Origin: a virus | Lineage: Duplodnaviria > Heunggongvirae > Uroviricota > Caudoviricetes | Length of the DNA stretch: 32,520 nucleotides | Strand: one strand, 5' to 3' | IMG/VR virus record: IMGVR_UViG_2531839666_000028 | Shown: piece after piece, positions 24,001-30,000 of the stretch | How the letters are laid out: every line of letters starts with the position of its first letter | Numbering within the stretch: position 1 is the first letter of the stretch | Program-made: the position numbers

Positions 24001-27000
24001 TGGCGGCTGAGCTGGCTGCGGATATCCGCCGTTTGTGGGCTGAATGGTCCGTGAGTCCGGATGTGACAGGGCAGTATACCCGTCCTGTGCTTGAACGTTT
24101 ACTGCTGCGGACCTGGCTGCGGGATGGTGAAGTGTTTGCGCAGATGGTCAGTGGTGCGGGAAACGGTCTGGAACGGACGGCGGGAGTGCCATTCTGGCTT
24201 GAGGCGATGGAGCCGGATTTTGTTCCCATGCGCACAGATGAATCCGCCGGACTGAATCAGGGGTTTTTCTTGATGAGTGGGGAAGACCGAAAAATATATC
24301 TGGTTTATAAAAATTATCCGGTCAGCGGTCGGCAGAGTGATACGAAAGAAATCGCTGCCGGAAAAATGATCCACCTGAAGTTCACTCGTCGTCTGCATCA
24401 GACGCGAGGCTCATCCATGTTATCGGGGGTGCTGATGCGGATCAGTGCCCTTAAGGAGTATGAGGATGCGGAACTGACAGCGGCGCGTATTGCTGCGGCG
24501 CTGGGACTGTATATCCGTAAAGGTGACGGACAGGACTATGAAGATCCGGGGATCAAAGAAACCGAGCGGGAAGTCCATATCACCCCGGGTATTATTTATG
24601 ACGATTTGCGCAAGGGCGAGGATATCGGCATGGTCAAATCTGACCGTCCCAATCCCAATCTTGAAACTTTCCGCAACGGCCAGTTGCGTGCAGTGGCAGC
24701 AGGCAGTCGTCTGAGTTTTTCCAGTGCGGCGCGTAACTATAACGGCACCTACAGCGCCCAGCGGCAGGAGCTGGTCGAGTCCACGGATGGTTACCTGATC
24801 CTGCAGGACTGTTTTATTGGCGCGGTAACCCGCCCGGTGTACCGGACATGGCTGAATATGGTGGTTGCGGCAGGTCTGCTGAAAATTCCGGCGGATGTGG
24901 AGATGAAAACGCTATATAACGCGACGTATTCCGGTCCGGTGATGCCGTGGATCGACCCGGTTAAGGAAGCTGAAGCCTGGAGAATTCAGATCCGGGGTGG
25001 TGCAGCGACAGAATCTGACTGGGTGCGTGCCGGCGGGCGCAATCCGGATGAGGTCAAACGTCGCCGCAAGGCTGAAATTGATGAAAACAGCAGACTGGGG
25101 CTGGTCTTTGATACTGACCCCGTCAACGACAAAGGAGGCAACAGTGCCGGAACTGAACGACAGTATCAGCGCGACACCGAAAGCCAGCATGAAGAATAAA
25201 TCCTGGTTCAGGATGCAGACTGGGGGGCCGGGTGACGCGGATATTTATATTTATGACGAGATTGGTTTCTGGGGAGTTACCGCGAAGCAGTTTGTCAGCG
25301 AACTGAATGCACTGGGTGATATCACCCACATTAATCTCCATATCAATTCACCGGGTGGCGATGTCTTTGAAGGCATCGCCATTTTTAATGCCCTGAAAAA
25401 TCAGGGGGCGACCATTACCGTGTATGTGGATGGCGTTGCCGCCTCGATGGCATCTGTGATTGCGATGGCCGGTGATACGGTCATTATGCCGGAAAATGCC
25501 TTCATGATGATCCATAAGCCATGGGGATTCAGTGGCGGGGATGCTGAGGATATGCGCAGTTATGCCGATTTGCTGGGATAAAGTCGAATCGGTACTGTTG
25601 CCAGCCTATGCGCAGAAAACCGGAAAAACCACCGATGAAATTGCCGCCATGCTGGCGGATGAAACCTGGATGTCCGGTGCCGAATGTCTGGCACACGGAT
25701 TTGCTGACCAGGTGACACCCGCTGTTGAGGCAATGGCATGTATTCAGTCAAAACGTACAGAGGAATTTAAAAAGATGCCGGAATCCATCCGAAACATGAT
25801 TACTCCGCCACGCAACAGTGCCCCGCGTGATACCACAGTGACAATCCCTGCACCGGCGGTAACAGAACCATCACCGGTACCGGCAGTGTCTGATGAGGCG
25901 ACCATTCGCGCCCGCGTTATGGCTGAGCAGAAAGCCCGCATGTCAGGCATTAACGATCTGTTTGCCATGTTTGGCGGTCGCTATCAGGCGCTTCAGGCGC
26001 AGTGTGTGGCCGATCCTGACTGTTCGCTGGAAATGGCCCGCGAGCGCCTTCTGAATGAAATGGGCAAGGAGTCATCGCCGACCAACAAAAACACACCGGC
26101 CCATATTTATGCCGGAAACGGCAATTTTGTGGGAGACGGGATCCGCCAGGCGATGCTGGCCCGTGCCGGATTTGAAAATGTCGAGAAGGATAACGCCTAT
26201 AACGGGATGACCCTGCGTGAATGGGCTCGTATGTCACTGACGGAGCGCGGTATTGGGGTGGCCAGTTATAACCCCATGCAGATGGTCGGGCTGGCGCTGA
26301 CGCACAGCACCTCTGATTTTGGCAATATTCTGCTGGATGTGTCGAACAAGGGGCTGATCCAGGGCTGGGAGGAATCAGAAGAAACCTTCCAGAAGTGGAC
26401 CCGTAAGGGACGCCTGTCAGACTTCAAAACAGCGTATCGCGTGGGGATGGGCGGTTTTGGTTCTCTGCGCCAGGTTCGTGAGGGGGCGGAGTATAAATAC
26501 ATCACCACCTCAGATCGCAAGGAGACCATTGCTCTGGCCACCTACGGGGAGATTTTCTCCATCACCGCCAGGCCATTCATCAATGATGATCTGAATATGC
26601 TGGTGGACGTGCCGATGAAGATGGGGCGTGCGGCGAAGGCAACGATTGGTGACCTGGTTTACAAGGTGCTGACGGATAACCCGAAACTGTCTGACGGTAA
26701 GGCGCTGTTCCATGCCGATCACAAAAATATTGCCACCGGGGGGATCTCCGTTTCCGGACTGGATGCGGCCCGTCAGATGATGCGCCTGCAGAAAGAAGGC
26801 GATCGCGCCCTGAATATCCGTCCGGCCTTTATGCTGGTACCGGTGGCACTGGAGACGGTGGCGAACCAGACCATCAAATCGGCCAGTGTGAAAGGGGCGG
26901 ATGCAAACGCCGGTGTCATTAACCCCATCCAGAACTTTGCTGAGGTGATTGCAGAAGCGCGTCTTGATGCGGCAGATCCGAAAACCTGGTATCTGGCGGC

Positions 27001-30000
27001 GGCACAGGGCACTGACACCATTGAAGTGGCCTGGCTGGATGGTGTGGACACGCCATACATTGATCAGCAGGAAGGTTTCACCACTGACGGTATTGCCACA
27101 AAAATCCGTATTGATGCCGGAGTGGCACCACTTGACTGGCGCGGGCTGGTGCGTTCGTCGGTGGCCTGATAACCGCGTTATCACAATCACTGCCCGAAAG
27201 GGCTTTTTTTATGCCTGAAAAACAGCCCCACAGGGGCTGTCCGGAGAAACAGCATTATGGCGAAAAATTTTGTACAGGACGGTACCACCATTGAACTGGT
27301 GAATGCCGGAGATCAGACCATCCTGAGCGGTGCTGCGGTGGTGGTCGGCAGTATGGTGGCCGTGGCCATTACCGATATTCCTGCCGGTGAGGCCGGTGAC
27401 GGTTTTGCCGAAGGCGTGTTCCTGCTGCCCAAACAGTCTGCTGACGACATTCAGTCCGGCGCGGTGGTTTATCTGAAGGACGGGGTTGTGCAGCTGGCTG
27501 CAGACGGTGCGGTGGCAGCGGGAGTAGCCTGGGAAAATGCTCCTGCAAACAGCGCCGCTGTGGCGGTAAAAATCAATGTCTGATCTGTTTACGCGAATGT
27601 GTTGCCGGATGGACGTGGCGACCGTTCGGATGATGGGCAAACAGGCGGAGATTAACGGCGTCGTGTACGACGTGATGCCGGAGGAAGAGTCCGCGGAGAT
27701 GGGGGCGCTTTCGGGCAGCCAGTTGTCACTGGTGGTGTTTTCAGCCCGGTACCGTCCGGCCCGTCATGATGTTGTTGTGTTTGCGGGGCGCACACTGACG
27801 GTGACCCGTTATGACACGTACAACGGTAAACCCCGGATTTTTGTCGAACAGGAATGAGTATGGCAATAAAAGGTCTGGCGCAGGCCATGAAAAATCTGGA
27901 TGCAATTGACCGCCGTGCCGTTCCCCGGGCTGCCGCCACGACACTTAACCGTGTGGCGGAGTCCATCATCGCGAAAACGGCCTCTTCGGTTGCCAGGGAG
28001 CTGGCGGTTCCGCGCCGTCTCATCCGTGAGCGTATCCGCCTGCAACGGGCCAGCGCAGACAGGGTTTATGCGAAGGTCATCATCAACACCGGTAATCTGC
28101 CCGCCATAAAACTGGGGACGGCCAGCGTGCTGCTTTCCCGCAGAAAGCGACGAAAGAAAGGCGAGCGTTCGGTCACGAAAGGCGGTGGCAGCGTGCTGAT
28201 TGTGGGGAAAAGACGGATCCCGGATGCCTTTATCACCCGGCTGGCTAACGGACGCTGGCATGTGATGCAGCGTATGCCGTGGGCATCATCGTCCACCGGC
28301 GCTGACAGCAAAGGGAGGCCGAAACGCCACCGTCTGCCGATCGAAGTGGTGAAGATTCCGACTGCCGGACCGCTGGCAGAAACCTTTGAACGTGAACGGG
28401 ACCGGATGTACCGGGAAAAATTACCGGCGCAGATGATGAAAGCCATGACGCATCAGTTACGCCTGGTGCTGAAAAGAAAATGACTGGGAGGGTGTATGAA
28501 ACACCGTGAAATACGGGCGGCAGTTCTGTCTGCCCTGAAAGAAAATATTTCTGAGAGGGTGAGCTGGTTTGACGGTCGCCCGGTTTTTATTGATGAACAG
28601 GAACTGCCTGCTGTTGCTGTTTACCTGACAGATGCGTCTGCTGCTGACGAGTTCGTTGATGAGGGAACCTGGGAGGCGACACTGCATATTGAGGTTTTTC
28701 TCAGGGCAAAAGAACCGGACTCGGCACTGGATATGTGGATGGAAGAAAAAATTCTTCCTGCGCTGGAGGCAGTTCCCGGGCTCAGTGCATTACTGCTGAA
28801 GATGAATCTTCAGGGGTATGACTACCGCCGGGATGATGAGTTTATGATGTGGGGATCGGCAGATCTCCTGTGGAAAATTACCTACGAGATGTGAGGACGA
28901 TATGGCAACACCAAATCCTCTTGAGCCGGTGAAAGGTTCCGGTACCACACTGTGGGTGTACACCGGCACTGGTGATGCTTATGCAAACCCGTTGTCAGAC
29001 GATGACTGGCAGCGACTGGCGAAGGTGAAGGATCTGACCCCCGGCGAGATGACGGCGGAATCCTACGATGATAACTATCTGGATGATGAGGATGCTGACT
29101 GGGTATCCACCGGGCAGGGGCAGAAATCTGCCGGTGACACCAGTTTTACGCTGGCCTGGAAGCCGGGTGAGAAAGGGCAGCGCGATTTGATTGCCTGGTT
29201 TGACAGCAGTGAGACCCGGGCCTACAAAATTCGCTTCCCGAACGGTACGGTGGATGTGTTCCGTGGCTGGGTGAGCGCCATTGGTAAAGCGGTGACCGCC
29301 AAAGAGGTGATCACCCGTACGGTAAAAATCACCAATATCGGTCGTCCGTCGCTGGCGGAAGATCAGGGGGACATCACACCGGTCACCGGTATTACCGTGA
29401 CGCCACCAACGGGCAATGTGGCAAAAGGTCAGAATATCACCCTGACCGTGGCCGTTCAGCCGGAAGGCGCGACGGATAAAACCTTCCGTGCCACGTCGGC
29501 GAATCAGAATTTCGCCACCATTACCGTGAAGGGGAACACGATCACGGTGAAAGGTGTTGCGGCAGGTAAAGCACAGATCCCTGTGGTCACCGGCAATGGT
29601 GAGTTTGCGGCGGTGGCGGAAATTACCGTCACGGATGGTGCAGCGGGTTAAGCTGAGGGAGTGATAAAGCATGTTTCTGAAAACAGAACAATTTGAATAT
29701 AACGGTGTGTCTGTCACGCTTTCTGAGCTGTCTGCGCTGCAGCGTATTGAGCATCTTGCCCTCCTGAAACGGCGGGCAGAAGAGGCTGAAGCCAGCGGTA
29801 ACCTGCAGGTGAGCGTGGAGGACCTTGTCAGAACCGGGGCGTTTCTGGTGGCGATGTCCCTGTGGCATAACCATCCACAGAAAACGGCGTCACCGTCAAT
29901 GAATGAGGCCGTGATGAAGATAGAGCAGGAAGTGCTCACCACCTGGCCTGCCGATGCCATTGCCCGGGCGGAAGACGTTGTGTTGTGCCTGTCCGGGATG

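Follow-up and report, generated by a model that had tools for sequence, protein, structure and literature searches.

We found that the ClpP-like prohead protease and the major capsid protein encoded in a 32,520-nucleotide (nt) stretch of DNA from the IMG/VR virus record IMGVR_UViG_2531839666_000028 (hereafter the window, a Stx2b-converting lambdoid prophage) are parts of one fusion gene, which is split by a single extra G. Direct reading of the strand (the parts of the fusion gene and its two neighbouring genes are on the + strand) reveals an upstream fragment of this gene at 25189..25581 with the frame MKNKSW...EDMRSYADLLG, which encodes 130 amino acids (aa) comprising the N-terminal two-thirds of a ClpP-like (S14) prohead protease and ends at a premature TAA stop codon at 25579-25581. 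An overlapping downstream +1 frame is open from 25511, has its first start codon, GTG, at 25532 with GGGGA five bases 5' of it, reads ...DKVESVLLPAYAQKTGKTTDEIAAMLADETWMSGAECLAHGFADQV..., and runs through the remainder of the ClpP domain into the capsid protein, ending at a stop codon at 27167-27169. The two frames are joined into a single 659-codon open reading frame (ORF) when one G is removed from the GGG run at 25575..25577, where the relatives have GG (CTGGAT, Leu-Asp). An earlier sequence-only reading of this locus had described both the end of the protease frame and its continuation from 25532, and had proposed a single protease-scaffold-capsid gene split by one extra G; this proposal is borne out by the domain continuity, by near-identical intact genes compared base by base, and by the uninterrupted ORFs of all 32 homologues from other species. 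However, it had started the gene at a GTG at 25144, giving a product of about 670 aa, whereas the RefSeq start in identical relatives, followed here, is the ATG at 25189; the product is then 659 aa long, and the gene shares its first 11 nt with the end of the portal gene.

The break lies within a protein domain rather than between two domains. When the two pieces were searched separately against Pfam, the upstream piece matched positions 29-130 of the CLP_protease profile and the downstream piece positions 134-179, with 88 and 24 bits, respectively, whereas the repaired product gives one unbroken match over positions 29-179 with 126 bits, covering residues 31-176. The break at residue 130 corresponds to profile position 130 of 182, and the continuity of the ClpP domain across it is far beyond chance. 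The C-terminal third of the domain (25578..25717, repaired residues ~130-176) is thus read in the +1 frame. Alignment of residues 39-182 to solved ClpP structures places the catalytic triad at Ser86 (AASM; codon at 25444), His109 (IHKP; codon at 25513) and Asp173 (HGFADQV; codon at 25706), so that the first two residues lie in the upstream fragment and the third lies beyond the frameshift, and the break parts Asp173 from Ser86 and His109. The best protease match is to ClpP/S14, whereas the SppA models of NCBIfam reach 16-31 bits against cutoffs of 155-311. The major capsid protein domain occupies 26294..27169 including the stop codon at 27167-27169, and matches Pfam Phage_capsid_4 at repaired residues 369-656 (E-value 3.7e-52), with a weaker match to Mu-like_gpT. 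Hence, the hidden Markov model search that the sequence-only reading had proposed recovers both the ClpP (S14) and the HK97-type capsid domains in the repaired product.

Between the protease and capsid domains lies a central region of ~190 residues (25718..26293, repaired residues 177-368), which consists of a Pro/Ala-rich linker and a conserved segment. It matches no Pfam domain in the search of the repaired product, is covered by the NCBIfam model NF045540 and is colinear with its counterpart in the Salmonella phage Gifsy-2; by analogy with that system, it may have a scaffold-like role. The repaired 659-aa product as a whole scores 988.1 bits against NF045540 (cutoff 475 bits), aligned over model positions 2-651 of 652, while the downstream and upstream pieces alone score 765.8 and 203.8 bits, respectively. 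All three parts are in one uninterrupted ORF in the closest relatives, in all 32 homologues from other species and in Gifsy-2, but not in the window, where one extra G gives rise to the stop codon at 25579-25581. Judged from its sequence, the window copy is a frameshifted or mis-sequenced member of the NF045540/Gifsy-2-type family.

The 2.1-kb region was matched in 2,065 of the 5,426 complete E. coli genomes, and the best matches span it with 2,100 bases instead of 2,101 and have a single intact coding sequence of 1,980 nt in their annotation. The fusion gene of strain 2012EL-2448 (protein WP_215257451.1) is nucleotide-identical to that of the window apart from three insertions or deletions (indels): base-by-base alignment shows no substitutions, the extra G at 25575, a deletion of C at 26566 and an insertion of C at 26578. 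The latter two form a compensated pair in the capsid domain (26565..26578; one C is lost from a CCC run and one is gained 12 nt later), which changes RQAI to ARPF at residues 460-463, so that SITARPFINDD occurs only in the window while Gifsy-2 keeps SITRQAIINDD; these lesions, and similar ones in other genes of the window, had escaped the sequence-only reading. The window gene is 98.8% identical to the O157 copies, and genuine relatives of the fusion gene differ from one another by 11-29 substitutions and no indels.

We probed the insertion site itself with a 73-nt sequence centred on it, and 477 of the 478 E. coli records retrieved lack the extra G. The sole carrier, FORC_043, holds a different prophage with 95.7% identity, shows 63 gap openings (66 gap positions) over the 8.7 kb aligned to the window, and has nearly every gene flagged as frameshifted; we therefore discarded it as independent support for the GGG. 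Among the viral contigs in IMG/VR, the junction with GGG was found in none and that with GG in 41, and none of 12 close phage records has the extra G, all of them carrying the shorter form. In the phage collection, no record matched the window over its full length at 99% or more, the best match reaching 94.6%. In an exact-sequence look-up, the truncated products from five alternative starts (130, 145, 194, 545 and 542 aa) matched no protein in an index of 153 billion genes. As the truncated products are on no record, no independent assembly supports the GGG allele, which is private to the window sequence, the only other carrier being the indel-ridden assembly. Further afield, full-length homologues on bacterial contigs of other Enterobacterales species (one genome per species), including Klebsiella, Enterobacter, Citrobacter, Rahnella, Erwinia, Serratia, Morganella, Providencia, Sodalis and others, are uninterrupted ORFs in 32 of 32 cases, and YADLLDK is near-invariant across the junction in them. 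At least 80% of the fusion is covered by 82 phage records, including a Pseudomonas phage at 58% identity.

We consider it rather probable, from these sequence comparisons, that the single-gene fusion is the true state and that the extra G is an error of sequence determination or assembly; the true gene is then probably intact, and the break not a property of the phage. In the parts of the window that are collinear with strain 2012EL-2448, we counted 12 isolated 1-nt indels against ~15 isolated substitutions. Eight of these indels fall within 3.7 kb (22866-26578), and four of the 12 are insertions outside homopolymers. They include two -1/+1 pairs, with spacings of 12 and 36 nt, and a +1/+1/+1 triple whose shifted frame runs through a stop codon, and because of this stop codon, selection cannot explain the compensation. 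This pattern, together with the three indels and no substitutions in the fusion gene, bears the mark of errors in base calling or consensus building, not of mutation. Three points weigh against an error: other genes of the window, namely those for the large terminase and a DUF6645 protein, are broken as well, as in a decaying cryptic prophage; true disruptions of the fusion gene are known in other strains, such as the IS629 insertion in Sakai Sp15; and a change of GG to GGG is plausible as a natural slippage event.

These points lead to the principal alternative, namely, that the Stx2b prophage is defective and its fusion gene was turned into a pseudogene by a genuine insertion of the extra G; we regard this as a real possibility, albeit not the favoured one. 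In that case, the N-terminal fragment would lack Asp173 and the C-terminal helices, a restart product would consist of the scaffold and capsid domains with no working protease, and heads could mature only with protein from another lambdoid prophage in the same host; since there are up to six copies of the gene per genome of Shiga toxin-producing E. coli (STEC), such complementation is conceivable. The main argument for a pseudogene is that cryptic prophages decay. The splitting of the catalytic triad by the break is in agreement with it, as are the broken terminase and DUF6645 genes, a tape measure pseudogene in the reference prophage itself, and the lesions that have hit the fusion gene elsewhere (besides the IS629 insertion, a -1 change in a G6 run in strain 2015C-3121). 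However, decay would have to account for three indels with no substitutions in the window gene, in contrast to the 11-29 substitutions, and not one indel, seen among true relatives; for close compensating indels, which are unexpected from mutation without selection, one set of them running through a stop codon; for the change of the conserved RQAI to ARPF in the window alone; and for an allele missing from all other collections save one indel-ridden assembly.

The remaining explanations fare much worse. Programmed +1 recoding at the GGG, by ribosomal frameshifting or transcriptional slippage, would yield a free protease fragment and the full fusion at a set ratio. An in-frame stop codon directly after the shift site (CUG GGA UAA) is superficially similar to that of prfB, and an imperfect inverted repeat at 25563-25594 (GCCGATTTGC ... 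G.CGAATCGGT) brackets the GGG, which puts the extra G into a small hairpin loop. Such a hairpin could also favour slippage during sequencing or replication, but its fold z-score is only -1.9. Moreover, homologues with identical flanks (all 41 viral contigs, 477 of the 478 E. coli records and all 32 other species) lack the extra base and can do without a shift, hence there is no conserved recoding site; no slippery codon re-pairs in the +1 frame (GGA to GAU), there is no upstream Shine-Dalgarno-like stimulator, and the free fragment would lack the catalytic Asp. We therefore rejected programmed +1 frameshifting on comparative and sequence grounds, and consider it highly improbable. It is equally hard to credit that the extra G is real and heads are still made, with sufficient full-length polyprotein coming either from low-level +1 slippage at CUG-GGA-UAA or from trans-complementation by the fusion protein of a co-resident prophage, although, if this were true, the split would be tolerated and could be a naturally occurring step between fused protease-capsid genes and separate ones. 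Finally, the idea that separate, overlapping genes for the protease and the capsid protein are the rule, with the single ORFs of the relatives as the exception, finds some comfort in ~1,500 further phage records that match the fusion only partly and that, among the matches listed, are mostly stand-alone ClpP-type head maturation proteases of ~200 aa, but we rejected it as the least credible of all, because the break, at profile position 130 of 182, cuts through the ClpP domain and splits Asp173 from Ser86 and His109, and every close and distant member of the family examined is a single ORF. Both findings that the sequence-only reading had named as fatal to its proposal, separate genes as the normal state and a missing ClpP continuation, are thus contradicted by the data.

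The fused protease-scaffold-capsid architecture is real, but it is already known and forms a curated family. The closest characterized system is the tripartite capsid gene of Gifsy-2 (STM1034.3n.Gifsy2, NC_010393; 696 aa), with whose product the repaired window product is colinear from end to end at 61% identity. Like the repaired window gene, that of Gifsy-2 combines in a single ORF a ClpP-like protease at the N terminus, a central region, and a capsid protein at the C terminus. The YADLLDK junction and the SITRQAIINDD motif are conserved, and the gene order is likewise shared: small terminase, large terminase, small ORF, portal, fusion gene, ~107-aa ORF and lambda-like tail genes. The window copy differs in its ORF-splitting 1-nt insertion, in its compensated indel pair, and in a shorter and divergent central linker. 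The Gifsy-2 protease and coat genes have been reported as fused (PMC12315714, citing Effantin et al. 2010, Virology 402:355), and PMC8538268 mentions that the Gifsy-2 capsid bears a trimeric decoration protein. NF045540 ('ClpP-like prohead protease/major capsid protein fusion protein') is found in STEC lambdoid prophages such as that of strain 2012EL-2448, in the same Stx2b-type prophage context. Unlike the window copy, these STEC genes are intact 659-codon ORFs, with two kinds of exceptions: in the Sp15 prophages of the O157 Sakai/EDL933 type (NC_002695 / AP000400) the gene is disrupted by an IS629/IS1203 insertion, and in strain 2015C-3121 (590-2568 of the locus in NZ_CP027340) it has a -1 change in the G6 run corresponding to window positions 25219-25224 and carries the PGAP flag 'frameshifted'. 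The Sakai Sp15/VT1-Sakai copy is labelled 'protease/scaffold protein'. Comparison with related prophage head modules, another check suggested by the sequence-only reading, thus reveals an intact single ORF and a common gene order in both 2012EL-2448 and Gifsy-2.

Two other well-known head systems are instructive. In HK97, the scaffold function (the delta domain) is attached to the gp5 capsid protein and is removed by the phage protease inside the procapsid, and the gp4 protease is encoded by a separate gene and belongs to the herpesvirus-assemblin-like S78/U35 family. The window locus shares with HK97 the logic of an attached and removable scaffold, but its protease is of the ClpP/S14 type and is covalently fused. 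Phage lambda has the S49 (SppA-like) protease C, within which the scaffold Nu3 is nested, and encodes its capsid protein in a gene of its own, E. The lambda-like terminase, portal and tail genes that flank the window locus, and the protease/scaffold/capsid task itself, are common to both, but in the window all three functions are in one ORF with a ClpP protease, and the lambda-type set of an S49 protease, a nested scaffold gene and an independent capsid gene is absent. The contrast with lambda C/Nu3/E drawn by the sequence-only reading is therefore real, while the novelty that it implied does not hold, since Gifsy-2 and NF045540 have already been described.

While the family assignment follows from the comparisons above, a mechanism can be proposed by analogy with Gifsy-2 and with HK97-type assembly at large. 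The intact gene would be one 659-codon ORF of a lambdoid Stx2b prophage that specifies, from the N to the C terminus, a ClpP-like serine protease, a scaffold-like region and an HK97-type major capsid protein. The polyprotein would build the procapsid via its C-terminal capsid domain, with the central region serving as an internal scaffold, and each capsid subunit would carry one ClpP-like protease into the shell. The protease would then excise itself together with the central region, so that mature capsid protein remains, and the shell would mature, probably stabilised by a decoration protein. The gene directly downstream of the fusion gene, which encodes a 108-aa DUF2190 protein (27257..27583) and is syntenic with the 107-aa gene following the Gifsy-2 fusion gene, is a candidate for this head decoration protein. 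With the sequence as written in the window, this pathway cannot operate, because the 130-aa fragment has neither the catalytic Asp nor a tether to the capsid domain, and a restart product, for instance from the GTG at 25532, would have no working protease.

We give the finding little weight for biology; its practical value lies in annotation and quality control. The locus should be annotated as one frameshifted gene, not as two genes, and since the window contains a dozen single-base indels, which disrupt the terminase gene and another gene as well, the inference of a defective Stx2b prophage should wait for sequence verification. The window gene is an ordinary and well-known type of phage head gene with, most likely, a sequencing error or else a recent inactivating mutation.

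The position of the fusion gene in the head module is that of the Gifsy-2-type members: it comes right after the portal gene, which it overlaps, and is followed by the ~107-aa ORF, in the same order as in 2012EL-2448 and Gifsy-2. The portal gene directly upstream (23697..25199) has an indel pair of its own, with a -1 change (G5 to G4) at 24259 and a +1 change 36 nt later at 24295; its ORF stays open, and residues 190-200 are rewritten from GVFLDEWGRPKKY in the reference to GFFLMSGEDRKIY in the window. The large terminase gene (21362-23485) is broken by +1 insertions at 22866, 22944 and 22960, all within 95 nt; its frame hits a stop codon at 22895-22897 and is restored after 22960, while the reference gene is intact with 707 codons. 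Downstream of the stx genes, a DUF6645 homologue (14940-16915; 658 aa in the reference) is split into the ORFs 14940-15302 and 15299-16915 by a 1-nt deletion at 15260 (CC to C), and further 1-nt deletions are found at 14528 and 14840, just upstream of this gene, and at 609. The closest reference prophage with an intact capsid gene (in NZ_CP027586) has a tape measure pseudogene with an internal stop codon (31505-34099 of that locus), indicating that the near-identical prophages of this lineage are not all fully intact.

The toxin genes of the prophage, stxA2b (13188-14147) and stxB2b (14160-14423), encode proteins identical in sequence to those of strain 2012EL-2448, and are preceded by two tRNA genes, tRNA-Arg(tcg) (12930-13006) and tRNA-Arg(tct) (13020-13096). 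The lysis-gene region at ~17100-19750 is a mosaic patch relative to the near-identical 2012EL-2448 prophage, with 91% identity or no match, as is typical of lambdoid module exchange. In the tail module, homologues of the tail assembly chaperones gpG (29671-30102) and gpT (30129-30533) are arranged as in lambda, where the G/GT arrangement involves a programmed -1 frameshift.

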